Below, piece after piece: positions 4,420-32,109 of a DNA stretch of 64,000 nucleotides. The position numbers were made by a program, and so were the translations under genes. Every line of letters begins with the position of its first letter. Positions within the stretch are counted from its first letter, which is position 1. Location: the IMG/VR virus record IMGVR_UViG_3300045988_115450, positions 32,001 to 96,000 of that record; one strand, 5' to 3'. A model generated the notes under the pieces. The model made no database searches, was not told where the DNA came from, and was given only the letters and a program-made list of their open reading frames with translations. Source of the stretch: a virus.

Positions 4420-5628
4420 TTATTCGCTTGCCTTGAAATTGTATACAGGCTTGATGATGTTCGCGACCTCTACGGTGTCCGCAATATTGGCAATGATTTC
4501 CTCCATCGTCTTGTAAGCCATCGGACTTTCATCAATGGTGGAACGGCTGACAGATGTGGTGAAGATACCCTTCATGGAATCCTCATACTCCTCGAGAGAA
4601 ACCAGCTCTTTCGCCTTACTGCGGCTCATTACTCGACCAGCACCATGAGGAGCTGAACAGTTCCAATCATCATTACCCTTGCCGATACCGATGATACAAC
4701 CATCACGCATATTGATAGGAATGAGGAGCTTTTCACCAGCTTTCGCAGAGATAGCCCCCTTGCGAACCATATTCGTTCCAAACTCAATGTAGTTGTGAAC
4801 GGTCTCGAACATCGGCAAATCCCAGTAGGCGATGTCACTTCCGAACAAACTGCTGACGATTCGATTTGCGATTTCATATCGGTTGGTTGCCGCAAAATGC
4901 TGACACGCTTTCATGTCGTGAAGATAATCTTCCCGGTGCTTTCCTGTGAGGTAGCACAGTTCCTTCGGAATCCCGAGAGGGTTCGGAGAGAACTTTCTAT
5001 GAAGCTCGGCAATCGCTTTCTGAATTTCCTTTTTGCGCCCCTGCGCCTTGTAATCAACAATCAGTTTCTCTTGTATAGCAATGAGTTCGTCCTTACCTTG
5101 CATAGTCTCAACGGCAAGGTTCTGATAGTATTCGGCAACCTGTTTTCCCAAATTGCGGCTACCAGTATGAATCACAAGGTATTTTACCCCTTCGGAATCA
5201 GTATCAATCTCGATGAAATGGTTTCCACCCCCGAGAGAACCGATGGAGCGAACCAGTCGTTCCGGGCCTTTGAGTGCCTTATAGCACCGAATATATTCAA
5301 TTACCTCGGTAGGGTAGATAGCCGTCTCGTTTACTTCACGACCACTTGGGACGTTCTCCCGGATAGCCTTGTCGAGATAATCGAAGTCAATGTCAATCTT
5401 ACCCAGTTCCACGGTCAGCATACCGCAACCAATGTCAACGCCAACGATGTTCGGAATGACCTTATCCCCCAAATCAGCCGTAAAGCCAACGACACAACCA
5501 GCCCCAGCATGAACATCGGGCATGATACGAACCTTGCAATCTGCGAAAGCTGGTTGTTTGACAAGGGTATAAATCTGATTCAGAGCCGTAGGCTCGATGT
5601 TATCAGTAAAAATCTTTAAGTCGCTCAT
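4420..5628 (-). CDS. rtcB: RtcB-family RNA 3'-phosphate ligase
   Basis: RtcB signatures: GGGNHFIE, HTGSRNLG, APHGAGR, MPDVHAGAG. Start set at MSDLKIF, which overlaps the upstream stop as TAATG. The track alternative is 5667. Confidence 0.9.
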   Translation of the reverse strand: MSDLKIFTDNIEPTALNQIYTLVKQPAFADCKVRIMPDVHAGAGCVVGFTADLGDKVIPNIVGVDIGCGMLTVELGKIDIDFDYLDKAIRENVPSGREVNETAIYPTEVIEYIRCYKALKGPERLVRSIGSLGGGNHFIEIDTDSEGVKYLVIHTGSRNLGKQVAEYYQNLAVETMQGKDELIAIQEKLIVDYKAQGRKKEIQKAIAELHRKFSPNPLGIPKELCYLTGKHREDYLHDMKACQHFAATNRYEIANRIVSSLFGSDIAYWDLPMFETVHNYIEFGTNMVRKGAISAKAGEKLLIPINMRDGCIIGIGKGNDDWNCSAPHGAGRVMSRSKAKELVSLEEYEDSMKGIFTTSVSRSTIDESPMAYKTMEEIIANIADTVEVANIIKPVYNFKASE

Positions 5629-6005
5629 TACACCACCATCACAATCCATGTTAAAATAATCTGACAAATATGAACCAGCTGATCCTGAACCAGGTTGATT
5701 TTCTTAAAGTTCGCCTTCAAGTCGTCAACACAGAAGTGAATAACGCAGTTCACTACCAGCATAACAAAAAACAGGACCGGTAGGTTGAGCTTCAGATAAA
5801 CCGCCACCGGCAGCATCGTCATGAACGTCCAGCTAGAAGCGTGCATAAACAGTGCTGCAAGATAGTCGTGCCTGTACTTCTCTCCAGGAGAGTTCTTTCT
5901 CCACCAATCCTTCTGCTTCATACTGGCAAGCACACCCTGCAGGTAATAATCATCCACGATGTGAGCAAACAGCATCACCAATAACACAAATAGCTTAGTC
6001 TGCAT
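5628..6005 (-). CDS. small multi-pass membrane protein (DUF3307-like)
   Basis: Four hydrophobic segments; HIVDDYYLQ motif near the N-terminus. Confidence 0.6.
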   Translation of the reverse strand: MQTKLFVLLVMLFAHIVDDYYLQGVLASMKQKDWWRKNSPGEKYRHDYLAALFMHASSWTFMTMLPVAVYLKLNLPVLFFVMLVVNCVIHFCVDDLKANFKKINLVQDQLVHICQIILTWIVMVV

Positions 6006-9410: not shown

Positions 9411-10577
9411 TTAGTTTTTGAGATCCTTCTTCATCGTGGCTTCAATATCAAAGCCAAACTTCTGACTATAGCGAGTGATAACTCCATCAATACTTCCTCT
9501 GTTAACCATTCGATAGTAGCTCATAAGACCGAGCACATATTGCAGTTGCTCAAGAGGCCAATAAGTTCCGCTCTTTCTGTCCTTCGCGTAATTGAAAAGC
9601 ATCGCCTCGAAGTTGCGCTTCTTCTTATACCCAATCGTGATCTGGTTGTCCTTGTTGATCATCACACCGAGTACCCAATTCTTATGATACGAGGGGCCGT
9701 AATGAGTTTTCTCATCTTTGATGAGATAACTGGCCCCGAAAAGTCTAAACAGATTTTCAATCTTTCTGATAATGAAGCTCTTATCAAACTCAATACCACA
9801 GCTGATGTTCATATCATCAGCATATCTGGTATACGCGAACCTTCTACCCTTTTCATCAGGGTTGTTTTCCGGGTTCTGCAGGCTACGCAGAAACTTACTG
9901 AACTCAAAATCAAACGGAATCATAATCAGATTGGTCAGCATCGGGCTGATCGGCGTTCCCATAGGTAGACCTCCATCCAGGAAGCAAAGCGACAGAGCTT
10001 TTCTAAGCTCTTCTCTCCCGCTTTTGCACTCCATAATGAGACAGAACGGGTAAATCATAGACAGCGCGTTCCATACAAACTCCGGAGTGGTATTAGGAAA
10101 GAAACCGCTGATGTCAGTCTTTAAATACCACTTGCTCTTATTCCACTGATGGACTTTTGCGGCGTCTACACTACTTCTGTTTTTGACATAAGCGTATGCA
10201 GCGGCATGGCTGCTCGCATAAAACTCAGATTCTAACAGCAGTTTTAGCTCTCGCAGACAATTCATCAGTTCGTCGTCCGGCGCGTTAATCTCTCTCATGC
10301 CGCCGCTCTTTTTCGGGATAAAAAACTTATGGTAATGTGTATGAAGATCGCTTTCAAGCAGTTCCTGATGCTTTTTGTTAAATGCTCTCAGTAGTTCAAT
10401 CTTTTTCCCCGTGTCAAACCCTGCCAGGATTCTCTCGGGCAGTCTCTCATATGCAACTGTTCTAGTATATAGAGATCTCGATTCCCTCACATGTTTATCT
10501 TGAAGCAGCGCAGACATAATATCCTCTAAAGAAATCTGCTTATACGGCTCTGTAATTCTTGCTGTTACATAAATCAT
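9411..10577 (-). CDS. reverse transcriptase, retron-like (388 aa, RT domain only)
   Basis: FFIPKKSGGMREINAP (RT1); SSVDAAKVH; LKTDISGFFPN (RT3); LPMGTPISPMLTNL (RT4); YTRYADDMNIS (RT5, YADD); NWVLGVMIN at the position of the retron VTG block. No accessory domains. Confidence 0.85.
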   Translation of the reverse strand: MIYVTARITEPYKQISLEDIMSALLQDKHVRESRSLYTRTVAYERLPERILAGFDTGKKIELLRAFNKKHQELLESDLHTHYHKFFIPKKSGGMREINAPDDELMNCLRELKLLLESEFYASSHAAAYAYVKNRSSVDAAKVHQWNKSKWYLKTDISGFFPNTTPEFVWNALSMIYPFCLIMECKSGREELRKALSLCFLDGGLPMGTPISPMLTNLIMIPFDFEFSKFLRSLQNPENNPDEKGRRFAYTRYADDMNISCGIEFDKSFIIRKIENLFRLFGASYLIKDEKTHYGPSYHKNWVLGVMINKDNQITIGYKKKRNFEAMLFNYAKDRKSGTYWPLEQLQYVLGLMSYYRMVNRGSIDGVITRYSQKFGFDIEATMKKDLKN

Positions 10578-10593
10578 ATTATTCTCCTTGCTT

Positions 10594-10937
10594 TTATCTG
10601 AAACTATATATGGATTTGGATGTCAGTACGAGATGCTCATCGCGGAGCTTGTCGTCGTCTGAGACGGTGAAATCCCTGACTTGGCGTTTATTGTTTGCCG
10701 GATACCCCTGCTGGTGGCGGATGTTGACCCTGTCGAACGAATATCCTTCTGGTTTTTCCTGTTGTTCGGGCGCTGCTTCTCATCAGAGAAGATGCCACCG
10801 GGGTGTTAAGCCTTCTTGGAGGGCACCAAGCATTGGTCTGCTATCGCACGCAGCGGGGTTCCTCTTTCGGACGATGTGCCACTCTTCCGTTCCGGTAAGA
10901 GTTTCTATTTTTTTAAATAGAAAGTGCTTTCAGATAT
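10594..10937 (-). ncRNA. IR-bracketed structured RNA gene, copy A (candidate retron msr-msd)
   Basis: No minus-strand ORF. The 9-bp inverted repeat TATCTGAAA (10595-10603) / TTTCAGATA (10928-10936) brackets it. In RNA sense the 5' arm is followed by G and then the hairpin TTTCTATTT-AAAAAA-ATAGAAA. The core 10604-10901 is homologous to 16549-16848. The element ends 17 nt before the RT ATG. Confidence 0.55.
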
Positions 10938-11037
10938 TTAGATTGAATTGGTTGTTAGCAGGCGTGCCATTCCCCTGCATCTCTTTAGCCATTAAGGCGC
11001 GTGGCGACACGAAATTTCCACCTCAAACAACCAATAT

Positions 11038-11706
11038 TTAATATGCTTCCATAGTAAAATCAAAGGCGTCGATCAAAACTATCTTCTTGATCGAACGCCC
11101 ATTCACAAAATTCATGAAGTTTGCTACTGCACAAGAGCAAATCATCCGCACAGAAGGAGCGATACTAAGCTCCAGGTTACATGCAGATCGAGGAGTTTCA
11201 GCCAGAGCTTCCTCTTGAGTAAACTGCATGGAGTTAATCAGATTTTCAACCATCGCACTAGAACTCCAGTCAGCCGCAAAGTGTTGCGCGTCCGTCAGCC
11301 GAAGTCTGGTATCAAACACAGCTTTGATATACGGGTTTCTAGCATTTTCTTCGCAAATTTTTCTGCGGAGATCAATGTTGTCCACCATAAGGAAGACATA
11401 GCCGGACAGACGCTGGTTGGTATACCCCTCCTGAACTACTTCAATACCATTTGCATCAGGATTGATACTCAACATCATATCTTTCACGGCTTCAGCTTTA
11501 TTTCTACCGATGTCGCTATCATTGAACATCTGATTCGCGATATTGTGCGACTCAACCTTGTCAAAATCGTACAGAGTGACCTTCTCAAGCCCAGCTCTTG
11601 CCAACAATTCGGCTACAGTGGAACCGGACGCACCACAACCGATGATATGTACTCTTTCTTTAACCTTCGTGGGATTAAAGAACTCAATACTCTTCGATAA
11701 ATTCAT
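11038..11706 (-). CDS. ThiF/MoeB-type E1-like adenylyltransferase (222 aa, minimal)
   Basis: Rossmann loop IIGCGASGSTVAELLARAGL; then LYDFDKVESHNIANQ (DxD...N..Q, with the usual Arg replaced) and LMVDNIDLRR. Confidence 0.8.
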   Translation of the reverse strand: MNLSKSIEFFNPTKVKERVHIIGCGASGSTVAELLARAGLEKVTLYDFDKVESHNIANQMFNDSDIGRNKAEAVKDMMLSINPDANGIEVVQEGYTNQRLSGYVFLMVDNIDLRRKICEENARNPYIKAVFDTRLRLTDAQHFAADWSSSAMVENLINSMQFTQEEALAETPRSACNLELSIAPSVRMICSCAVANFMNFVNGRSIKKIVLIDAFDFTMEAY

Positions 11707-11718
11707 CTTTATACCTCC

Positions 11719-11997
11719 TTATAGCATTAAACAATTCAAAAATACATCACTATCGACTTTACTTTCAATCGGCTCAAACATCCAAGAAGCCCAAGCAACA
11801 AATCTTAATTTGCCTCTTTCTTCAATGCAAATACGTTCAACTTGAATGCCGTTAATCAAGGATGTCAATGAGCGCACTGTTATGATCTTACCGCAATAGC
11901 GCGTTTTATCCCCTTCAAATATCCCGTGATCATTTTTAGAAAGAATCGCCGTTCCACTACCTGTATCTACGGAAAACAGATCAGGGTCAGACATCAT
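11719..11997 (-). CDS. NCLLL-tail family protein 5 (92 aa; tail ...FLNCLML)
   Basis: Shares only the C-terminal tail with the four upstream genes. A 16-codon out-of-frame remnant of the family N-terminus lies just upstream. Confidence 0.6.
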   Translation of the reverse strand: MMSDPDLFSVDTGSGTAILSKNDHGIFEGDKTRYCGKIITVRSLTSLINGIQVERICIEERGKLRFVAWASWMFEPIESKVDSDVFLNCLML

Positions 11998-12061
11998 GTC
12001 TTCCTAACTCCTCACCCTGACCTTCTGCCCAACATACATATCTTCAAGTTTCATACGTCAC

Positions 12062-12394
12062 CTACAACAACAAACAGTTCATAAAAACCTGCTCATCAAT
12101 AGATTGCTTTAACCGCAACACACTTTTATAGAAAGACATCTCTTTTTTGCTAACCCTTACCCTGTACCAACCGCCAAGTTCATACTCAACGATCTCGCCG
12201 CCGTCTCTTATAAACTCTCTGAGGCAAGGATCGCCCTCCGCGTACATCACATCGTCGGCGTATATAAATCTTTCGTTTGTGATGATGTCTACGCTCTGCG
12301 ACACAGCCCCATTCGGAAATACCGCCCGTAAGTTATCATTAAATTCATCCCACGTTTTTGGAATAAACTCAACCCGCTGCCCAGGTCTAAACAT
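12062..12394 (-). CDS. NCLLL-tail family protein 4 (110 aa; tail ...VFMNCLLL)
   Basis: Paralog of 12404..12745 and 12753..13082 (MFxxGQ[KR]V...WDEF...GWY.V...); conserved C-terminus. Confidence 0.7.
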   Translation of the reverse strand: MFRPGQRVEFIPKTWDEFNDNLRAVFPNGAVSQSVDIITNERFIYADDVMYAEGDPCLREFIRDGGEIVEYELGGWYRVRVSKKEMSFYKSVLRLKQSIDEQVFMNCLLL

Positions 12395-12403
12395 TATATC
12401 ACC

Positions 12404-12745
12404 TCACAATAATAAGCAATTTATGAACAATTTTTCATCAATTGACCTCATGTCTTCTTTCAGACACAACACGCTTTCGTGAAATTTCAGTTTTACTCCA
12501 TTTATATTCACCATATACCAACCAGTAGCATAGTACTTGATAATCTCACCTCCATTTATTAGAAGCTCGTTAAACCAAGAATCGCCTTCCCCATAAAGCA
12601 CCCCTGCAACCAATATCATTTCTCTATGAGTAGTTGAGAATTCATCTAATATCATATCTCTCGCAAACAACTCCATTAAAGCATCCCGAAATTCATCCCA
12701 TGACTTTGGGGCAAGCGTAACTTTCTGTCCAAGTTCAAACATCAT
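12404..12745 (-). CDS. NCLLL-tail family protein 3 (113 aa; tail ...LFINCLLL)
   Basis: Paralog set; conserved C-terminus. Confidence 0.7.
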   Translation of the reverse strand: MMFELGQKVTLAPKSWDEFRDALMELFARDMILDEFSTTHREMILVAGVLYGEGDSWFNELLINGGEIIKYYATGWYMVNINGVKLKFHESVLCLKEDMRSIDEKLFINCLLL

Positions 12746-12752
12746 ATTACCT

Positions 12753-13082
12753 CTATAGCAGCAAACAATTCATAAGTACCTCTTCGTCAACATATGCTTC
12801 TTCCATCGACCGTAGCATCGTCTCATAGAACCACGCTCTTTCTCCGCCAAAGTCTACAATGTACCAACCACACTCGAAGTCTAATTCAATCACGCCACTC
12901 ATCCTGCGTAACTTATAAAAATCGGGAGCGCTATATCCTGCTGCACTAGCTGCAAGATACCCAGTGGTATCACAGCTCGTAAACCTTTTTGCGCTGCGAG
13001 GAAGATGCTTTAGGTAAGCGCTGCAAAACTCATCCCAGCTCCTCAATGCTATCCTGACTCGTTGTCCGATCTCGAACATCAT
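12753..13082 (-). CDS. NCLLL-tail family protein 2 (109 aa; tail ...VLMNCLLL)
   Basis: Track ORF is 12753..13133. Trimmed to MMFEIGQRV... behind AGAGGAG. Confidence 0.7.
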   Translation of the reverse strand: MMFEIGQRVRIALRSWDEFCSAYLKHLPRSAKRFTSCDTTGYLAASAAGYSAPDFYKLRRMSGVIELDFECGWYIVDFGGERAWFYETMLRSMEEAYVDEEVLMNCLLL

Positions 13083-13092
13083 ATCAACTCCT

Positions 13093-13437
13093 CTATAACA
13101 GCAGGCAATCCATAAGTGTCTTTTCGTCAACACTTTTTTCTTTTAATTGACACGGCGCTGTTTCGCCCGGCCCACCCACCAAACACTCATCTCTTACTTC
13201 GCCAAAGTCAACGCGCCAAATCCAATAGTCATCCGGTTCCAGATAAATTGTCGCTCCGTATTTATCTGGAGCATTAAAATTGTCACCTTCAATCATTTCG
13301 CATCCATCATCGACGCATTCTTGAAACACTGAATGAAACCTACGTTTCACGTGTTCCACCGCACTCTCCAAATTCCAATAAACACCGGATAAATCAATAC
13401 CCTGGTCTGTTTCTGTTATCACACAATATACCTTCAT
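13093..13437 (-). CDS. NCLLL-tail family protein 1 (114 aa; tail ...TLMDCLLL)
   Basis: Track ORF is 13093..13542. Trimmed to MKVYCVITE... behind AAAGGAG. The N-domain is unrelated but the C-terminal tail is the same. Confidence 0.65.
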   Translation of the reverse strand: MKVYCVITETDQGIDLSGVYWNLESAVEHVKRRFHSVFQECVDDGCEMIEGDNFNAPDKYGATIYLEPDDYWIWRVDFGEVRDECLVGGPGETAPCQLKEKSVDEKTLMDCLLL

Positions 13438-13611
13438 ACCGGTCTTCTCCTTTCTTATGTACCTCTGAACAGCTAACCAGCTGTTTAAGTTCAAAAGTTT
13501 TCTGCTCTGGGAGTAGGAAAACTTTTGAAGCGACACAGCCATTTGTTACTCCCTCGTTCCGACAAGAGTGATATGTAATTTAACATATCTGTACAGGCAC
13601 ATATGTTTTTT

Positions 13612-14298
13612 TTACTTAATTAACATCTTACCGTCACGCCAATCGGGCCGCTCATCAATAATTTTATCTGCGTCCTCCATGAATTCTTCAAGCTCAACCG
13701 CGGCGTTCATAATCCACTCGATGCCATCCTGTACATCACGCACGTCCACCTTCTCAAACCGGTCAATGTTATCGAAAAACCATCTGCACAAATCATATAC
13801 AGCGGGGTTCCATCGTTCCACTGCGAGTTCCACATTGTCGCTTTCGTATAGGATGCCTTCTCTAACATCATAAACCTGTGAAGATATGTAGCCTTTCTTA
13901 TTGAAAATCTGAAAGACGTAGAAATCATCAACGTCTGTCAGCAAATCTGCTCTATACTTTATATCCGTAGAAGATGGACTGACACCCATGTTCACATGAG
14001 AATGCCCGTACAACCGAACCTTATTGAATATCTCCGTGTTAAGAGAATCCTGCCAGTTCACATAGTCCGCATCTTCAGGTTCGGTGCTTGCCGACGTGAC
14101 CTTCTGAGGGAATACCAAGACGTCCTCCACGATAAACTCAGCTGGATTTTCCAACCTTCTTACAACTCCGTGCCATCCAACCTCCAGATTCCTATTCATA
14201 ACAAGCAAACACGTCTTCATCCATGCCTTCTTACTGTATACGATTTTGCACGGATTTGTCGCGGCCAACAAATCCGTTGCATTAGTTGCCTTATTCAT
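13612..14298 (-). CDS. JAB/MPN (JAMM) metallopeptidase (228 aa)
   Basis: Complete JAMM signature: upstream Glu (LEVGWHG) plus HSHVNMGVSPSSTD (HxHx7SxxD). Confidence 0.8.
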   Translation of the reverse strand: MNKATNATDLLAATNPCKIVYSKKAWMKTCLLVMNRNLEVGWHGVVRRLENPAEFIVEDVLVFPQKVTSASTEPEDADYVNWQDSLNTEIFNKVRLYGHSHVNMGVSPSSTDIKYRADLLTDVDDFYVFQIFNKKGYISSQVYDVREGILYESDNVELAVERWNPAVYDLCRWFFDNIDRFEKVDVRDVQDGIEWIMNAAVELEEFMEDADKIIDERPDWRDGKMLIK

Positions 14299-15706
14299 TG
14301 CTCTTATTCTCCTTTATCCATTTAATTGCGTCGATGTAATTAACTACTCGCCCATCCGGCAACTCCAATACTACAGCGCCTTTTCTCAACAACTCTTCAA
14401 GGAATGATCTCAATACGACAGTATCACTAAGATTCAGATTCCCGCTTTCGGCGCACGTCGTGTCTACCGTATAAACGTAGTCACATTTGTCGCAAGATTT
14501 CTCTAGCGCCTGTTGCCAGCTCCCCATGCAACCATATTTATCAAGGTGTGTGTTGGGGAGATAGCTGTTGTATTCACAGCCATACCCATATGCCTTGATG
14601 GGTAGTACCATTCCTCCGAAAGAAAGTCTCCATGCGGAACACATTCTTACTTTGATATTAGAGTCAATGAAAATCCCTGTCATTAACTTTTTAGTATCAC
14701 TTTCTGTCAGGCCCACATACGAAGACCGCGTATAAAAAATCGACGACCGATTGTTGATGTACTCTCTCGCAATCTCTGGATCAAACAGTGTCATATAACC
14801 AGTTACAACATATACGATATTCCCATCTTTGTCACCGCTCTCAACGGACACATTTTTGTTCGACAAAAAATAATCCATTAACTCGTTCTTGCTTTCAACA
14901 TTACTGTTGTCAATTGCTTCCACCAACAAAGACCAACCTTCGTATTCTCTATACCAATCTCTCAAATCGGACATCAATTTATTGATCTGACTTCTTGCAC
15001 TCTCCATCTTCTTTGCGTATCTTTCCCTCTGTACGTTCCTTAGCTTTCCCTCATAGCCATAAAGGTAATATCTCTTTTTAGCTGAGGCCACGTCCACAGC
15101 AGCGGCAACCATATCGTTCATCGCTTTACAGATTACACTCATGCCGGAGTCTTCTTTAGACAGAATCTTAATAAACTTTGACTCCGCTTCAGTCCTGTCT
15201 TTAATGTACCATGGGCAGAATACATTGAAAAGACACACTAGGTAATGCCACGAGCCATAGTTATCCACGTTGGTAAGGACAACCGTACTCTTCCTCTCTT
15301 CATTACTGAAAATTCTCAGTATGATACCGAGTCGTTCTTTCATTAGATTCAGCTCTCTTGCCGTCTTCTCTTTCCAACTGCTCGCACATTTCATATTACT
15401 GACTAAAGTTTCTACGGCCTTAACCTTATCACACACGCAAAATGTAATCGTGTTGTCTTGAGAAGTTACCTCCGAAAAACGCTCTTTGTCTTTTATCCAC
15501 GTAATCCAATCAGCACAATTAGGATCTACCACTCTAACCATGATACGCACGTCCGCCGGAACTCTTGGCTTCAAAAACAACCGAGCCATTGCCAACGCAA
15601 AGTCATCGCCTTTGAACGTCCCGTCACCAGCAATATTAGAAAACTCAGACTCCAGCTCTGGGGCCAGCACTAAAACTTCACTGCGTTTCAAACAATTTGA
15701 AAACAT
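14291..15706 (-). CDS. hypothetical 471-aa protein with a Cys-rich C-terminal domain
   Basis: Track ORF is 14291..15772. Trimmed to MFSNCLKR... behind AAAGGAG. The C-terminal LPNTHLDKYGCMGSW loosely resembles an E2 HPN...C motif. Overlaps the JAB gene start by 8 nt. Confidence 0.65.
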   Translation of the reverse strand: MFSNCLKRSEVLVLAPELESEFSNIAGDGTFKGDDFALAMARLFLKPRVPADVRIMVRVVDPNCADWITWIKDKERFSEVTSQDNTITFCVCDKVKAVETLVSNMKCASSWKEKTARELNLMKERLGIILRIFSNEERKSTVVLTNVDNYGSWHYLVCLFNVFCPWYIKDRTEAESKFIKILSKEDSGMSVICKAMNDMVAAAVDVASAKKRYYLYGYEGKLRNVQRERYAKKMESARSQINKLMSDLRDWYREYEGWSLLVEAIDNSNVESKNELMDYFLSNKNVSVESGDKDGNIVYVVTGYMTLFDPEIAREYINNRSSIFYTRSSYVGLTESDTKKLMTGIFIDSNIKVRMCSAWRLSFGGMVLPIKAYGYGCEYNSYLPNTHLDKYGCMGSWQQALEKSCDKCDYVYTVDTTCAESGNLNLSDTVVLRSFLEELLRKGAVVLELPDGRVVNYIDAIKWIKENKSNE

Positions 15707-15788
15707 ATATCTTCTCCTTTCTTTATGAACTCTTGGCAGGCCATCCGACGTAACCGAATGCCCTCCCAGCAACTCACTGTGTTATGTA

Positions 15789-15814
15789 CGAGGCCGGACA
15801 ATGTCCGGCCTCGT
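15789..15814 (-). promoter_or_regulatory. 11-bp GC-rich stem-loop between the 79-aa gene and the 471-aa gene
   Basis: CGAGGCCGGAC-aatg-GTCCGGCCTCG; no U-tract, so a possible attenuator or processing site. Confidence 0.4.
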
Positions 15815-15832
15815 AGATTGTGCTAACTCAAA

Positions 15833-16072
15833 TCAGATCGCGTTACCTTGCGCCTTAACAATAGCACTCAGAGTACAAATACCAGCGGCACCAAGTTCGG
15901 CAAAAGTGCAATCCATATCATCAGGCGTCAGAATCGTGCCGGAAAGAGAATTGACGCTACGGCTGCACTCAATTCCGATCTTCTCGAACAGAGAACGAGG
16001 GGTCTCTACATGTTCATCTACGGCCTGGCTATCAAAACGGCGGGTGGTACTTCTAACATTCACAATAATCAT
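15833..16072 (-). CDS. small ubiquitin-like candidate (79 aa; Gly76 followed by NAI)
   Basis: MIIVNVRS... beta-strand start as in ThiS/MoaD; ends ...AIVKAQG-NAI. Size and context (E1 plus JAB) are the basis, not homology. Confidence 0.5.
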   Translation of the reverse strand: MIIVNVRSTTRRFDSQAVDEHVETPRSLFEKIGIECSRSVNSLSGTILTPDDMDCTFAELGAAGICTLSAIVKAQGNAI

Positions 16073-16113
16073 AATATACTTCCTTTCTGTTATTACATCT
16101 ATGCTTATTTGTT

Positions 16114-16503
16114 TTAGCCAGCTACTACGATCTTGGAACTGACCCGTGCCATCATAACGTCGATCTCTTCCAGCGCTTCGCGCACCTGGGCTTCAATCTT
16201 TTCTACCTTCTCGATAACAGAAGCATATCTCTCGGCAACAACCTCACGTACGGAACGGTCAGCTTCGGTAATAAGACTCACAGTTACGACCGCACGACCA
16301 GAGCCATCACAAGACTCAGCCTCATAGATAATACCGGTCGGTGCTACTACGCCTCTCTCGCCAGCGAGAGTGTAAAACAGTGCGTTGCCATCTTCGTCCA
16401 GCAGTTGCACAGACTTAGGCCGGTACAGAGCTGCGCGATTGATTTCTTCAAGAGTGAAAGCACTCTTGAGTGTTACTGCGTTACCACACACAATAATTTC
16501 CAT
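16114..16503 (-). CDS. hypothetical protein (129 aa) ending ...KIVVAG
   Basis: MEIIVCGNAVTLKSAFTLEEI resembles the ThiS/MoaD N-terminus; C-terminal Gly; first gene after ncRNA copy B. Confidence 0.55.
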   Translation of the reverse strand: MEIIVCGNAVTLKSAFTLEEINRAALYRPKSVQLLDEDGNALFYTLAGERGVVAPTGIIYEAESCDGSGRAVVTVSLITEADRSVREVVAERYASVIEKVEKIEAQVREALEEIDVMMARVSSKIVVAG

Positions 16504-17825: not shown

Positions 17826-17902
17826 TGGTGGTTCCTGCCCGGCTCGAACGGGCGACCATCCAGTTATGAGCTGGACGCGCTAACCAACTGCGCTAAGGAA
17901 CC
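17826..17902 (-). tRNA. trnM-CAU: tRNA-Met or Ile2 (anticodon CAU), 77 nt, CCA encoded
   Basis: Reverse complement folds as GGTTCCT-TA-GCGC-AGTTGGTTA-GCGC-G-TCCAG-CTCATAA-CTGGA-TGGTC-GCCCG-TTCGAGC-CGGGC-AGGAACC-A-CCA. Confidence 0.9.
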
Positions 17903-17978
17903 AGGTACGTTTAAAGCCGCTGAATTTATCAGCGGCTTTAAACTGTTAATGAAAGCAAGTGTCCGTATAAAACGAACG

Positions 17979-18053
17979 TGGCAGCGCCGGACTGAGATCG
18001 AACAGTCTTCCACGGAGTCAAAGTCCGTTGCATTACCGTTATGCTACGGCGCT
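17979..18053 (-). tRNA. trnQ-UUG: tRNA-Gln (UUG), 75 nt, CCA encoded
   Basis: AGCGCCG-TA-GCAT-AACGGTA-ATGC-A-ACGGA-CTTTGAC-TCCGT-GGAA-GACTG-TTCGATC-CAGTC-CGGCGCT-G-CCA. Confidence 0.85.
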
Positions 18054-18164
18054 ATATAAATCAAGCAGAGCAGAGCAGAGTTTAAAGCCATTCCAGGCTA
18101 TGTAAAGAAAGGAGGTGGTTTATCAACAATAACAGGTAGGAGAATCATTTTCTGTTGCTTGATA

Positions 18165-18239
18165 TGGGGTAGGCGACGAGTGCCGATCTCGCGTTTCCGG
18201 TTTGGAAGACCGGTGTTCTAGCCGTTGAACTACGCCTAC
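18165..18239 (-). tRNA. trnG-UCC: tRNA-Gly (UCC), 75 nt, CCA encoded
   Basis: GTAGGCG/CGCCTAC acceptor stem; CCGGT-CTTCCAA-ACCGG anticodon arm; unusual T-loop ATCGGCA. Confidence 0.8.
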
Positions 18240-18269
18240 ATTTTTGCGGTTCCGCAAACCGCATTTTTT

Positions 18270-18899
18270 TTAATTCATATATAAATCATAATAACTTTGT
18301 TTTCTTCTTGGTTTCAAATCTGGATTTTTTAAACGCCTTTTGATGAACTCAACTGTATTATCCAGCCCATAGTTCCTGACGTATGTATTGATCCTGTTTG
18401 CTCCCAAACCTAAAGTTTTAGCCCAGTCCTTCCCAGTATGTATCGTTCCGTCAACATCAATAAGCGAAGTTGTAGACTTGTATTTCGAATTATCTGCCAA
18501 TGTTACCCATCTGCAATTATCAGGAGAATAATCCCCGTCCCAATCAATTCTATCAATAGTCAAACCATCATCGTACCCGTTAGTTAATGACCAACTCTCA
18601 AATAATTCTGGATTGCGCATCCAATCATCACAAACCTTAACACCCTTAGCGCCATACCATCTGTAGCTCTTATTACTCTTATCATAGCACCTAGCTTTCA
18701 TATCGCTAAAAATTCTCCGGAGCTTGTCGTCACTCCATGAAGCATCATAATTTATATAACCCCCGCTTCTTCCGATATGTCTACAAGCTTTCGCCTGCTC
18801 AATATGCCTTTTCTGTTTGTTCGTTTCAAACCCACACTCAGCACATCTCACATGGTATAATCTATGCCCGTCCCTATGCCTGAAATCACACTCATACAA
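18270..18899 (-). CDS. HNH_3-like homing endonuclease with C-terminal HTH (209 aa)
   Basis: N-terminal CAEC...C..H zinc finger. TIDRIDWDGDYSPDNCRWVTLADNSK resembles DHIDG...NLRWVT..EN, but the first His is Arg. C-terminal WAKTLGLGANRINTYVRNYG. Confidence 0.6.
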   Translation of the reverse strand: MYECDFRHRDGHRLYHVRCAECGFETNKQKRHIEQAKACRHIGRSGGYINYDASWSDDKLRRIFSDMKARCYDKSNKSYRWYGAKGVKVCDDWMRNPELFESWSLTNGYDDGLTIDRIDWDGDYSPDNCRWVTLADNSKYKSTTSLIDVDGTIHTGKDWAKTLGLGANRINTYVRNYGLDNTVEFIKRRLKNPDLKPRRKQSYYDLYMN

Positions 18900-19047
18900 G
18901 ACATCGAAAATACCTATCCTAGTACCAACAATATTCTCTTTTTCCAGAATATCACCATCTTTCTGCGTGTTGCTAAATAATAATCCGATGAGAGTGCTGC
19001 CCTCTCGCCTGCGTTGTTCACTGTACTACTGTTATACTAATCGGATG

Positions 19048-19128
19048 TACGGGCGACAAGATTTGAACTTGCAAGCCTTACGGCACCGGGGCCTAAACCC
19101 GGCGTGTATACCGTTCCACCACGCCCGC
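19048..19128 (-). tRNA. trnL-UAG: tRNA-Leu (UAG), type II, ~81 nt, no encoded CCA
   Basis: GCGGGCG acceptor stem; CCGGG-TTTAGGC-CCCGG anticodon arm; long variable arm; T-arm GCAAG-TTCAAAT-CTTGT. Confidence 0.8.
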
Positions 19129-19210
19129 ATGGCACCACTAAGTCATGGTCGGCTGCGCATTTATCCTTTTTTGAATCGTGGTAGATGATTTTGCTTCGTA
19201 CAACCACGCA

Positions 19211-19285
19211 TGGACTGAGTGGAGAATTTTGAAATCTCGACCTCTGGTTCCCAAAACCAGCGTTCTGCCTCTGAACTACACCCAG
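19211..19285 (-). tRNA. trnP-UGG: tRNA-Pro (UGG), 75 nt, CCA encoded
   Basis: CTGGT-TTTGGGA-ACCAG anticodon arm; T-arm GAGAT-TTCAAAA-TTCTC. Confidence 0.8.
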
Positions 19286-19288
19286 ATA

Positions 19289-19363
19289 TGGAGGCCGATG
19301 CGAGTTCGAACTCAGCGTCTGTGGGTTACAAAGCCACTGTTTTACCACTTAAACTAATCGGCC
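19289..19363 (-). tRNA. trnT-UGU: tRNA-Thr (UGU), 75 nt, CCA encoded
   Basis: GGCCGAT/ATCGGCC acceptor stem; anticodon loop TTTGTAA with a C31-C39 mismatch; T-loop TTCGAAC. Confidence 0.75.
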
Positions 19364-19513
19364 ACGCACCCCGTTTTGCGGGGTGGCTATGTAAGGGAAT
19401 CAAAAAGGGGAACTCCTGTCTCTTCCAGGATGCCAACACACTACTACGGACTGCCAGAGGCAAACCGCCACTTTTCAGGTGTCATAGTCCGCAAACTATG
19501 GGCTTTTCTTTAG

Positions 19514-19595
19514 TGCGGGATAAGAGACTTGAACTCTTACGTCTATCGACATCGAGACTTAAACACGAGGTGTCTACCGATTCCACCAATCCCGC
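19514..19595 (-). tRNA. trnL-UAA: tRNA-Leu (UAA), type II, ~82 nt, no encoded CCA
   Basis: GCGGGAT/ATCCCGC acceptor stem; loop TTTAAGT; long variable arm TGTCGATAGACGT; T-arm AAGAG-TTCAAGT-CTCTT. Confidence 0.8.
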
Positions 19596-19602
19596 ATATT
19601 GA

Positions 19603-19940
19603 ACTTGCTACAACCCAGCCTGGTGGTTGACCCGTGGGCGTTGATAACTGACCCAAACCATTAACCCAGGATTTTGTAAAACTTTAACCGTTAACCTTTG
19701 ATTCTTGAACTTTAATCTTCTGAAGATCTTTGAGCCTTGAATTTTGAAATTTTAACTTTGAAGTTTGAGCTTTACAGCAACATTTCTTCTATAAGAAATT
19801 AGATTAACAGTCCAATCTTTTTGTAAGCGCAAAATTTCAAGTTTTGCTTTGTAGTTGGCACATATTTGTTCATTTTTACATCGAACCAAGTGCCGTCAGC
19901 ACGATGGGTTACCGTTTTAGGTTTTCGGGTTGCAGCAAGT
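19603..19940 (-). other. IR-bracketed ~340-bp ORF-free element with short-period repeats
   Basis: ACTTGCTACAACCC (19603-19616) versus GGGTTGCAGCAAGT (19927-19940), matching at 13/14. Interior has AACTTTAA / CTTTGA / GGTTAAYGGTT repeats and several local hairpins. Confidence 0.4.
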
Positions 19941-19948
19941 TGCTTATT

Positions 19949-20602
19949 TTAGTATTCTACGGTGATTGTAGTGGTCGCATTGGACACAGATAGCTGAGAA
20001 TCTACATCCGCAGTAAACGTGTCAATCCAATCGCTCAAAACCTTGATTTCATTACCAATGTCAAGCGGATCAACGAGTTCATACGTATTGTTGGCAATAT
20101 ACTCTTCTCTCAACCGCTTAACGACCTCAGAATCCTTGGTTGTCTTGGCCTCTTTAGGCTGGCACTGGAGGAAATTCATGATATACTGTTCAGCTTTCGC
20201 TTCAATCCACTCGCCTTCATGTTTGGAAACCTCAGCACGGGCTCTTTCGTACTGCCGGACCATTACATCAAGCAAATCTTTCTTAGCCATGATTCCATGG
20301 CTTTTCATTTCGATGGCTTCGGCTACGGTGTAAGGTTCGCCGCCAATTACCACCGGGGTTTTGGCATTGGAGAGCACAACTGCTCTCTTAATAGCCGTCC
20401 GACGAGCAATCAAGTCCGTAACAGACTGATAATCAGACTTCATATCCTTCTTGAGGGTTTCGACCAGCACACCGCCGATCTTTTTGTCGCTCACTTTCTT
20501 ACTGGCAACGAAGGTTTTACCAGAAGTAGCATTGAAAATTCTAGCGTCCAAAATTTTCAGCTCTGCAAGAGCTTTATGGACGGTCATAGTTTCTTTGTTC
20601 AT
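19949..20602 (-). CDS. hypothetical protein (217 aa) embedded in the tRNA island
   Basis: ORF track; plus-strand ORFs 20019..20333 and 20219..20635 are shadows. Confidence 0.65.
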   Translation of the reverse strand: MNKETMTVHKALAELKILDARIFNATSGKTFVASKKVSDKKIGGVLVETLKKDMKSDYQSVTDLIARRTAIKRAVVLSNAKTPVVIGGEPYTVAEAIEMKSHGIMAKKDLLDVMVRQYERARAEVSKHEGEWIEAKAEQYIMNFLQCQPKEAKTTKDSEVVKRLREEYIANNTYELVDPLDIGNEIKVLSDWIDTFTADVDSQLSVSNATTTITVEY

Positions 20603-20653
20603 ATTAGTTCCTCACTTTCTTATTTATGGAATTAGATTTTTATCGTGGTATCG

Positions 20654-20744
20654 TGGTCTCCCTGGGTGAATTCGAATCACCATATACCTTATGAGGGCCT
20701 TCCAATTATAAGTTGGAAGCTATAACCAATTTAGCTACAGGGAG
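20654..20744 (-). tRNA. atypical 91-nt tRNA, anticodon UAU, long variable region, CCA encoded
   Basis: CTCCCTG-TA-GCTA-AATTGGTTA-TAGC-T-TCCAA-CTTATAA-TTGGA-(19-nt variable AGGCCCTCATAAGGTATAT)-GGTGA-TTCGAAT-TCACC-CAGGGAG-A-CCA. Confidence 0.65.
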
Positions 20745-21024
20745 ATATTTGTTCAGCAACCACAACCGCCCTATCAATCAGTCGGCCTAACCAAAAGATA
20801 GGGCTGGATTGTGTTGCCCAACCGTGCCTGAGAGCTTTCTTGCCTAGCCTGTACTTAACCAGGTGTCTGCAATCAATGTTTAGGTTGCTGGTTTTGACCC
20901 TCGCTCTAGAACCAGTTAACTAGAGCGATTGAGAGCTACTAGACGGAATTGCACCGCCTTGAAGTCATAAGTGAGGCGCGAGAGGAGTTACGCCCACCTC
21001 TTCACCTGCTTGGAGTAGCATATG

Positions 21025-21100
21025 TGGCACCAGCACTAAGATTCGAACTTAGAACTACGGTTTTGGAGACCGCCGTTTTTCCACTTAAAACTATGCTGGT
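21025..21100 (-). tRNA. trnW-CCA: tRNA-Trp (CCA), 76 nt, CCA encoded
   Basis: ACCAGCA-TA-GTTT-AAGTGGAA-AAAC-G-GCGGT-CTCCAAA-ACCGT-AGTT-CTAAG-TTCGAAT-CTTAG-TGCTGGT-G-CCA. Confidence 0.9.
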
Positions 21101-27938: not shown

Positions 27939-28107
27939 ACAGCGTCCTACCTTTCCGCTACCCTAGCAAGCTGCTGCTAGGGTAGCTTTTTTTTGCAGGC
28001 ATAGACAGAATCCACCTATGTTATCCCTGCGACCTCGCAGGCCAGGGCGATCCCAGCCTACGAACGCTCCCGGCCTAACGCCTGTTTATAGTCGCCGGGA
28101 CGACTCT

Positions 28108-31218: not shown

Positions 31219-32109
31219 ATGAGCAACCTAATTTCTTTCCCCAACGGTACTGTCAATCCCGCCAGCAAAACTGTCAACCCCGCGTCCATCGACGTCAACT
31301 CTGTCCGCCGCTCACGGACTGCCGACAGTAGCCGTTCACGGGTACTCAAGCAGTCCGCTGCCAGCCGGATCACCGCTCAGAGCGACCAGCCGGTAGAGGT
31401 CATCACCGCACCTGACCGAGCGGCTGACCCTATTAAGAGTGTTGACGACATTCGTAAAGCGTGTTCCTACCTACTGGACAGCCATCGCTACAGAGACCAC
31501 ATGCTGCTGGTTATGGGTATCAATTTCGGCCTGCGAGTCAGTGACCTGCAGCGTCTCCGGTTCACCCACATCCTGAACGAGGACTTCTCCTTTAAAGAAT
31601 CCTTTGAGATCCTGGAAAAGAAAACTGCCTCCACCCGTAAAAGAAAAAAGAACCGCTACGTTGTCATCAACGACGCGGTCATGGACGCTGTGGAACTCTA
31701 CCTGGAACACGCTCCCTACCCCGTCAGCCTGTCTGACCTCGTGTTCCGTTCTGAGAGCAATAACCGTGGTGCTTACGAGCCTGGTCCTCTCAACAGAAGA
31801 TCCGTCAATCGTATCCTAGAAGATATCGCCGACCACTGCAATTTCGATTTCCGGTTCTCCTCTCATTCCCTCCGCAAGACATTCGGCTACCACCAAATGA
31901 TGATGTCCGGCAACGATCCTCGCAAGCTGGTACTCCTCCAGAAGATGTTCGGCCACTCCTCCATGAACGAGACCCTCTGCTATATCGGCCTCACCAAGGA
32001 AGAGATGACCGAAGCCTACGCCAATCTGAACCTGGGTGGCAACGGATACGACTACCAGCTCGCTGCTCTGTACGAAGCACCTGCTGATTCAACCCCCGCC
32101 GCCATTTGA
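31219..32109 (+). CDS. int: tyrosine recombinase / integrase (296 aa)
   Basis: FGLRVSDL (Arg I), HSLRKTFG (H-x-x-R), GHSSMNETLCYI (His...Tyr). ATG at 31219, 8 nt after the RBS. The track starts at TTG 31213. Confidence 0.85.
   Translation: MSNLISFPNGTVNPASKTVNPASIDVNSVRRSRTADSSRSRVLKQSAASRITAQSDQPVEVITAPDRAADPIKSVDDIRKACSYLLDSHRYRDHMLLVMGINFGLRVSDLQRLRFTHILNEDFSFKESFEILEKKTASTRKRKKNRYVVINDAVMDAVELYLEHAPYPVSLSDLVFRSESNNRGAYEPGPLNRRSVNRILEDIADHCNFDFRFSSHSLRKTFGYHQMMMSGNDPRKLVLLQKMFGHSSMNETLCYIGLTKEEMTEAYANLNLGGNGYDYQLAALYEAPADSTPAAI

Follow-up and report, generated by a model that had tools for sequence, protein, structure and literature searches.

A window of 64,000 nt (positions 32,001–96,000 of the IMG/VR virus record IMGVR_UViG_3300045988_115450) was analyzed, with a focus on five tandem genes on its minus strand at 11719–13437 that had a 12-residue C-terminal peptide in common. 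The consensus of this peptide, hereafter the tail, was (V/I)D(E/S)x(V/L/T)(F/L)(M/I/L)(N/D)CL(L/M)L. The window was part of a tailed phage and contained genes for a terminase, a portal protein and an integrase, as well as an array of tRNA genes. Immediately upstream of the tail genes was the gene of a JAMM/JAB metallopeptidase (13612–14298, minus strand, 228 aa), and immediately downstream that of a ThiF-type E1 adenylating enzyme (11038–11706, minus strand, 222 aa). These two neighbors had been named in an original prediction, which was made from the DNA letters without database searches, and both were found to be correct. The JAB profile in PADLOC gave a weak match, and the JAMM motif E...HxH...S..D was intact, with E39, H99, H101, S109 and D112 invariant in 20 homologs. 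The E1 matched the ThiF family of Pfam (5e-24) and the E1-E2 profile of PADLOC (3e-17).

The first tail gene (g1, 13093–13437) encoded a protein of 114 aa with an N-domain of family D, and it ended in VDEKTLMDCLLL. Its open reading frame (ORF) extended open to 13542, and the ortholog start was MKVYCV. The three following genes encoded proteins of the SH3-like family A: g2 (12753–13082, 109 aa, starting with MMFEIGQRV, ortholog P0139) ended in VDEEVLMNCLLL, g3 (12404–12745, 113 aa) in IDEKLFINCLLL, and g4 (12062–12394, 110 aa) in IDEQVFMNCLLL. The last gene (g5, 11719–12054) encoded a protein of the SH3-like family B that ended in VDSDVFLNCLML; it was interrupted, and the remaining ORF covered 11997–11719. 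All five genes were on the minus strand and at most 12 nt apart, with a ribosome-binding site before each. No terminator-like site was found between the JAMM gene and the E1 gene.

The 64-kb window had 697 stop-to-stop ORFs with a length of 40 aa or more; of these, only the five tail genes matched the tail at 9/9 positions in a reduced alphabet, and the next best match reached 6/9. The tails of the paralogs were identical at 5–9 of the 12 residues, and their protein bodies shared 15–38% identity. Different codons were used in 46 of the 73 tail codon pairs that encoded the same residue (63%), and the nucleotide identity of the tails was 64%. A repeat finder detected a similarity of 53 nt (62–79%) at the ends of four of the five tail genes, and nothing stronger. 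Because the codons for the same residues differed and the tails were far more alike than the bodies, selection acts on the tail peptide and not on a DNA repeat. The original prediction had reached the same conclusion from the five protein ends and five strings of six codons; the ends were as quoted, and the codon strings were exact.

After the tails were trimmed, the products of g2–g4 formed one family (family A). The g5 product fell into another SH3-like family (family B), which showed a marginal N-terminal similarity to family A (P 0.007). The N-domain of g1 was unrelated to the others and had a weak, sub-threshold match to DUF7336, the only domain match that Pfam, PHROGs and PADLOC returned for the tagged proteins. 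The AlphaFold2 (AF2) model of the 110-aa g4 product had a pLDDT of 90 and comprised an alpha/beta part plus an SH3-like barrel at residues 1–95, and its tail formed a short low-confidence helix at residues 101–108 (pLDDT 55 vs. 95 for the domain). Foldseek with this model gave weak matches to SH3, Tudor and Mib folds. A HMMER scan with family A against 1.84 billion representative proteins retrieved five true members, and the other matches were bacterial SH3b repeat proteins that shared the GGWYRI strand. With tails trimmed, family B was homologous to a family with the pattern Y+PGDxVxVR...WTDxMFE (probability 89.5%, E 2e-6), which was widespread and carried ECxCxSLL, DVSGLI or SLSDIL ends in other lineages. 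A beta-grasp fold was not found in the tailed proteins, for which the g4 model, Foldseek and the profile scan pointed to an SH3-like fold.

Each tail gene thus encodes a small soluble protein in which a short linker joins the folded domain at the N-terminus to a 12-residue tail under purifying selection. The tail is portable, and at least three groups of N-domains in the window carry the same one (families A, B and D). The notion of a portable tag on unrelated N-domains was already part of the original prediction and held after trimming. Its grouping of the domains was right in uniting g2–g4 and in setting g1 apart; g5, which had also been set apart, belongs to the second SH3-like family with a marginal similarity to the first.

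The tail was kept in all orthologous loci examined (L001–L007, P0001–P0010, P0138, P0139 and P0143); the loss of conservation that the original prediction had put forward as grounds for abandoning it was not seen. Ten homologs of the 110-aa protein, which were 58–92% identical, all ended in VDE(Q/E)(V/I)FM(N/S/D)CLLL. The Cys at position −4 was invariant within the window lineage, and the conserved part of the tail reached 8 residues upstream of this Cys. Tandem tail genes, in 2–6 copies, were present between the JAMM and E1 genes in 8/8 loci of the window lineage (the window and L001–L007).

The number of tail genes in this lineage was subject to turnover. Gene g5 was the remnant of a 111-aa gene that started at 12054. 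An in-frame TAG at 12006–12004 (minus strand) was located where intact orthologs have Trp17 (TGG), and the upstream frame read MKLEDMYVGQKVRVRS-TAG-EDMM. Intact 111-aa orthologs were found in L001 (3707–4042), L003 and L004. The ortholog in L007 (6652–7023) carried a frameshift inside the tail (..VDSDVFFELFNAIG..). The g5 paralog is therefore being lost in two relatives, the window and L007. Five tails were indeed present at the locus, as originally reported, but the gene of the fifth is broken at Trp17.

A search with the E1 retrieved 34 IMG/VR phage contigs (22–139 kb) and 80 contigs from genome assemblies, with an E1 identity of 46–100%. The assembly contigs were mostly Clostridia metagenome-assembled genomes (MAGs) from animal, human and termite guts. 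The related phages were ~100 kb in size, and their hosts, as judged from the MAGs, were mostly Clostridia. Integrase genes were found in the window and in some relatives, which suggests a temperate lifestyle. The E1 was part of a module with the gene order ~130-aa protein, ~78-aa ubiquitin-like protein, ~440–530-aa protein, JAMM, E1, spacer of 300–450 nt, and retron-type reverse transcriptase (RT). The whole module (9411–16503 in the window, minus strand) was conserved in more than 100 phage or prophage loci of gut Clostridia. The JAMM gene directly adjoined the E1 gene in most related phages, with no tail genes between them. The tail genes of the window are therefore a lineage-specific insertion into the module.

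Related phages had C-terminal tags of their own on 3–14 small genes with diverse N-domains that flanked the module. These were (S/N)LE(E/D)(I/V)L on at least 10 genes in L019, (V/L)DDLI on 9–11 genes in L034, (N/D/E)ECxCxSLL on 12 genes in the GenBank record MT835544, xxxC(K/R/T/H)SLL on 7 genes in its sister L048, SIS(N/K)LI on 5 genes in L030, SISD(L/I)I on 5–8 genes in L102, ELL(D/N)LLS on 3–5 genes in L111/L112, FDDLLKGA on 3–4 genes in L116, EFxxLIF on 3 genes in L099, (W/F/L/I)xx(L/I)L on at least 3 genes in L027, (I/L)DxILNx on 3–4 genes in L015, and FxxI(I/L) plus 3–4 residues on several genes in L012/L021. The common denominator was at least one acidic residue, followed by hydrophobic-x-x-hydrophobic-hydrophobic at or near the carboxyl end, and the tail of the window represents the form that this motif takes in one lineage. 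The tags of some lineages were not at the extreme C-terminus (ILNG, FxxIIxxx). The E1 was 48–62% identical between lineages whose tags differed completely. The tag does not depend on the domain that carries it, and the paralogs of one genome change their tags together. Such a concerted change would be predicted if a single co-evolving receptor had to accommodate every copy.

The tags were compared with control positions in 85 loci, which were scanned within 7–10 kb of the E1. The strict test called a tag family when at least 3 genes had 4 or more identical residues among their last 6; such a family was detected in 15/85 loci, and control 6-mers taken 20 residues upstream in the same proteins gave 0/85. 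Under a relaxed test, the count was 20/85 loci, vs. 1/85 and 4/85 in two controls. The tail genes of the window lineage were inside the JAMM–E1 operon, and tagged genes elsewhere were found on either side of the module, at distances of up to about 10 kb. In the 35-kb record MT835544, for example, 10 tagged genes were located in the 9 kb downstream of the module, 2 were located just upstream, and the other ~20 kb had none. A search for tagged arrays in phages without the module led to three independent contexts, reached through homologs of the SH3-like family proteins, and the module was present in all three.

In the ECxCxSLL lineage (L042–L048, e.g., L042 5166–17425), the tagged arrays were interleaved with the genes of a 273-aa tyrosine recombinase, a 688-aa DUF8224 protein and an nSTAND3/AAA protein. 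These arrays were then followed by genes for the salvage of nicotinamide adenine dinucleotide (NAD), namely NAMPT, Macro, NAD synthase and isochorismatase. Some copies of this lineage were located in bacterial contigs of 575–659 kb, which indicated prophages. The genome of L012 encoded a transfer-messenger RNA (tmRNA) at 12327–12745 with the unusual tag AVEDTPEKQFSL. It was the only tmRNA seen, and its tag did not resemble the FxxII-type tags of L012.

The module also contained several conserved genes upstream of the JAMM gene. The first gene (16114–16503, minus strand) encoded a protein of 129 aa that was fused C-terminally to the ubiquitin-like protein in some lineages; no PDB or Pfam match was found for it. 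Next to the JAMM gene, a 471-aa protein (14291–15706, minus strand) was encoded, with a central coiled coil and a C-terminal domain in which His387 and Cys393 were invariant (N-x-H-x5-C-x-G). This protein may be a thiol enzyme. Its comparison with canonical E2 detected no similarity (probability 0.1%), and its similarity to PDB entries was limited to the coiled coil. Its identification as an E2 was thus without support from either comparison, and an E2-like role is speculative. The invariant residues of the E1 were GCGxxG, D47, D49, N55, Q59, K70, D109, R114 and C176, which include the ATP- and Mg-binding residues, and its nearest relatives were the E1 domains of Cap2 from the cyclic oligonucleotide-based antiphage signaling system (CBASS). 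Distant E1 homologs, annotated as 'thiamine biosynthesis protein ThiF', were observed in L040 (crAss-like phage cr111_1, gp059–gp057) and L041 (Flavobacterium phage FpV4, gp52–gp50). They were behind genes for a ~415-aa protein with a metalloprotease domain and a ~425-aa hypothetical protein, in replication modules without an RT, and may form a related three-gene set.

The ubiquitin-like protein was encoded at 15833–16072 (minus strand, 79 aa) and ended in VKAQGNAI. Its comparison with the ubiquitin-domain profile by hhalign gave a probability of 82% (E 1e-5) over 66 columns in full-length register, and weaker matches agreed. The AF2 model of this protein failed (pLDDT 54, from an alignment of 8 sequences), so the fold assignment comes from sequence profiles alone. 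A hidden Markov model of the 79-aa protein detected a homolog in 100 of about 124 module loci; L009, L010, L015, L017, L018, L028 and L046 were among the loci examined for this protein and its 130-aa neighbor. The end V-K-A-D-(N/G)-A was conserved. It was followed by 0–5 variable residues in 84 loci (ADNA, ADNAA, ADGAR, ADSAAI, AQGNAI, and others), and it ran directly into the 130-aa protein as a fusion in 16 loci, with the junction KADNA|A. In ubiquitin-like precursors of this kind, for which QbsE/QbsD/QbsC and ubiquitin fusions are established examples, trimming by a JAMM peptidase comes first and adenylation by an E1 follows. Because a conserved motif that precedes extensions or a fused partner is the pattern of precursors, trimming by the JAMM and then adenylation by the E1 would be expected here as well. 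The 79-aa ubiquitin-like protein is thus probably the true substrate of the E1 and the JAMM. The module possessed three features that characterize ubiquitin-like operons: an E1 with an ATP-binding motif and a Cys, an intact JAMM, and a beta-grasp-type protein (judged from profiles) with a conserved C-terminus.

The last gene of the module encoded the retron-type RT (9411–10577, minus strand, 388 aa; Pfam RVT_1, 2.5e-13). It belonged to the retron clade (PADLOC RT_II-A, 5e-41; RT_I-A, 1e-38), and the RT was also found downstream of the E1 in related loci. The spacer between the E1 and RT genes (10578–11037, 460 nt) folded better than its shuffles (z = −2.84). At the head of this spacer, 6 nt past the E1 stop codon, a skipping-rope RNA was located (10951–11031, minus strand; Rfam RF02924, 50 bits). 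It occurred at the same position in L001–L005 and L007. As a general partner of the module, this RNA was rejected, since it reached the gathering score only in the window lineage and was not found in 12 more distant module loci. The context ties the skipping-rope motif, which has no assigned function, to the RT/E1 module.

The tail genes were also compared with the target genes of a diversity-generating retroelement (DGR). A near-identical DNA repeat of a template near the RT was absent, no template copy was found in the spacer between the E1 and RT genes, and the RT scored as retron-type. An origin of the shared ends from a DNA repeat or a DGR-type process was ruled out by the 64% identity of the tail codons, the saturated synonymous differences and the absent template copy. 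A stretch of 25 nt with 80% identity was observed between the RT codons for DDELMNCL (10253–10277) and the g2 tail (12761–12785). Mimicry of the corresponding RT segment DDELMNCLRELK, which shares LMNCL with the g2 tail, was judged to be chance, because the RT motif P..ELMtAL..LK was kept in lineages with quite different tags.

Against this background of selection on the peptide, portability, concerted and lineage-specific change, synteny with the module, and a cognate ubiquitin-like substrate, the following explanation is proposed. Through the tail, small binding domains of different kinds (SH3-like for the most part) would plug into a single shared partner, and this partner would change together with the tag in each phage lineage. 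The partner may be a component of the ubiquitin-like conjugation machinery that is co-transcribed with the tail genes. In that case, this machinery would have the tagged proteins as its exchangeable adaptors or clients, and the C-terminus adenylated by the E1 would be that of the 79-aa ubiquitin-like protein and not the tail. We tentatively favor a docking role for the tail, by which various small domains would be connected to a single partner specific to the lineage, with the ubiquitin-like machinery as the favored partner, and consider this quite possible, if short of probable. The ubiquitin-like machinery is favored because the tail genes are co-transcribed with the module in the window lineage, and because the arrays of tagged genes seen in other lineages all lay close to the module, with 3/3 independent contexts carrying it.

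Several points weigh against this explanation. The loci were all retrieved via the E1 or via a clade-restricted family, and the synteny is inseparable from shared ancestry or from an accumulation of accessory genes. Detectable tags within 7–10 kb were present in only about 18–24% of the module-bearing loci; with tags in about a fifth of these loci, the module works without them. The 471-aa protein had no detectable similarity to E2, and no E3 or adaptor-binding domain was identified. The general tag motif also has low information content.

Alternatively, the tag could address the proteins to a receptor unrelated to the module, and its location would be the place where accessory genes accumulate. 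The receptor could be a host or phage protease that reads the tag as a degron for timed turnover of early proteins, a capsid for which it is a signal for cargo loading or ejection, or a host hub, for example the sliding clamp or the proteins that partner with the tail of SSB (the protein that binds single-stranded DNA). Clamp-binding tails, SSB tails, C-degrons and encapsulin cargo peptides are acidic-plus-hydrophobic C-terminal peptides, and the tags have this form. Moreover, the tagged genes account for much of the small-gene content of an accessory region with tRNAs, NAD-salvage and recombinase genes, and tags were absent from most module loci within the scanned 7–10 kb. However, the concerted change of tags between close lineages (ECxCxSLL vs. 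xxxCKSLL) fits a fast-evolving phage partner better than host hubs or Clp-type proteases, and the tags of the window occur only inside the JAMM–E1 operon. The tmRNA tag of L012, the only one seen, is unlike the tags of that phage, which may count against a degron. As for capsid cargo, the terminase, portal and head genes were on the plus strand at 45–54 kb, and the tail genes were in a minus-strand early block ~20–30 kb away from the head genes and oppositely oriented. This is unlike packaged cargo, whose genes are next to the shell genes or expressed together with them. A receptor outside the module is a serious alternative, yet on this evidence a somewhat unlikely one.

The original prediction had taken the tail for a handle by which the E1 and/or the JAMM recognizes or processes the proteins. 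In this model, the C-terminus would be adenylated, perhaps after trimming by the JAMM, and conjugation or modification as for ThiS, MoaD, MccA or bacterial CD-NTases would follow. The five genes between the JAMM and E1 genes in one operon in 8/8 loci of the window lineage, the closeness of the E1 to the E1 domains of Cap2 and the invariant Cys at −4 in this lineage are consistent with it; Cap2 activates the C-terminus of a protein without a beta-grasp fold. This proposal is nevertheless improbable and was not borne out, because the E1 and JAMM have their own ubiquitin-like substrate with a different, small-residue tail across lineages (VKAD(N/G)A, with precursor-like extensions or fusions, in 100 loci), because the two enzymes are adjacent without tail genes in most lineages, and because the tags diverge completely while the E1 is conserved. 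The tags end in Leu or Ile, are predicted to be helical and are followed by 1–4 further residues in some lineages, and the tagged proteins are not of the beta-grasp type. The tags are also unlike the tail of the ubiquitin-like protein, so that one specificity of the JAMM or the E1 would not fit both. A substrate of an E1 has a flexible tail that ends in Gly-Gly, Gly or Ala and is conserved with the E1; the tails here do not have this form, nor is a tag present wherever the E1 is (tag clusters of at least 3 genes in 15–20/85 loci). From synteny alone, a looser functional link of the tail genes to the module is plausible.

The tail might also act during translation, as a nascent peptide that causes arrest or modulates termination and so tunes the coupling to the next gene of the tight array. 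Each tail ends at most 12 nt before the next start codon with a ribosome-binding site between, and selection is on the peptide and not on the DNA. However, ribosomes are conserved, so lineage-specific tags would not be expected, and tagged genes elsewhere are not always closely followed by another gene. To our knowledge, the tags have no resemblance to known arrest peptides, and this role is very unlikely. Finally, CLLL and CLML could be read as CaaX boxes with a lipidated Cys, since every member of the window lineage ends in four residues of the pattern C-aliphatic-aliphatic-X, but this reading, which holds only within that lineage, was ruled out by the cross-lineage comparison and deserves next to no credence: sister lineages have no Cys or a Cys elsewhere (VDDLI, SLEEIL, C-x-S-L-L), conservation extends 8 residues upstream of the Cys, the hosts are Clostridia, and protein prenyltransferases are eukaryotic.

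The module resembles Bil (BilABCD), type II CBASS with Cap2/Cap3, and Bub in the combination of a ubiquitin-like protein, a ThiF-type E1 with an invariant Cys and a JAMM peptidase. It differs from these systems in being encoded by phages or prophages, in having no recognizable E2, in being always linked to a structured RNA and a retron-type RT, and in a ubiquitin-like protein that ends in KAD(N/G)A and not in Gly-Gly. Arrays of tagged small proteins were not found described for these systems in the literature searched. In QbsE/QbsD/QbsC and CysO/Mec+, a JAMM peptidase trims an extension before the E1 acts on a small protein, or reverses the reaction afterwards. This description fits the 79-aa ubiquitin-like protein (VKAD(N/G)A plus 0–5 residues or a fusion) and not the CLLL-tailed proteins. 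MccB of the microcin C system is an E1-like enzyme able to adenylate a C-terminal residue other than Gly. However, MccA is a peptide of 7 residues and MccB has a peptide-clamp domain, whereas the proteins here are folded and of 90–114 aa and the E1 is a bare adenylation domain of 222 aa.

Under the docking explanation, there is a likeness in logic to viral and cellular families of substrate adaptors that share a docking motif. The ANK/PRANC proteins of poxviruses (F-box-like), SOCS-box and BC-box adaptors also form multi-copy arrays with fast turnover, combine variable domains with a short C-terminal motif and have a ubiquitin-type system in the same genome. There is no sequence relationship, and the motif here has 6–12 residues vs. 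roughly 40–50 for an F-box or SOCS box, so the likeness is in logic only. The LC3-interacting region or Atg8-interacting motif (LIR/AIM; e.g., the C-terminal WEEL of Atg19) and the SUMO-interacting motifs likewise consist of acidic residues and then a short hydrophobic core, which is sometimes C-terminal, and the tagged genes are beside a ubiquitin-like gene. The core here is hydrophobic-x-x-hydrophobic-hydrophobic and predicted to be helical, in contrast to the beta-strand W/F-x-x-L of those motifs. Encapsulin cargo peptides and the capsid-targeting tail of the HK97 protease are other examples of a short portable C-terminal peptide on unrelated domains, which there co-evolves with a virus-type shell, but the tagged genes here are in an accessory operon on the early strand, far from the head genes.

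That a C-terminal peptide can be portable is known in principle; what appears to be new is the present case, together with its scale and the genomic association in which it occurs. The literature searched yielded no retron-type RT linked to an E1/JAMM pair, no phage-encoded ubiquitin-like system of this type, nothing relevant on the ThiF of crAss phages, and no accessory proteins of phages with C-terminal tags specific to a lineage. A concerted change of portable tags on a dozen unrelated small proteins in one phage genome implies a dedicated receptor, and with it a way of organizing phage accessory proteins that was not found described. If the receptor is the adjacent ubiquitin-like machinery, the tagged proteins would be the first substrate adaptors for any prokaryotic or phage ubiquitin-like system and would give a handle on its targets. 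The docking-adaptor explanation, if true, would provide a prokaryotic-virus counterpart of the F-box, SOCS-box or PRANC adaptor families. Whatever the receptor, the tag is of practical use because it marks out a functional class among the hundreds of small genes of abundant gut phages that otherwise escape annotation. It likewise draws attention to a conserved module of a ubiquitin-like protein, JAMM, E1, RNA and retron-type RT that was not found described in the literature searched.

A broader and rather doubtful picture can be drawn from the docking explanation. Phages of gut Clostridia would possess a ubiquitin-like conjugation system of their own, to which a retron-type RT and a structured RNA are coupled. 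It would be served by exchangeable adaptors with small binding domains, SH3-like and others, that dock via a lineage-specific C-terminal peptide. Under an arms race with proteins of the host or of rival phages, the arrays would expand, swap their tags in concert and decay.

Other features of the window were observed outside the module. A gene for an RtcB-type RNA ligase was present at 4420–5667 (minus strand). An array of nine tRNA genes was located at 17826–21100 on the minus strand (Met, Gln, Gly, Leu x2, Pro, Thr, Ile-tat and Trp). In the early region, a Pistol self-cleaving ribozyme (RF02679, 64 bits) was found at 28028–28105, also on the minus strand.

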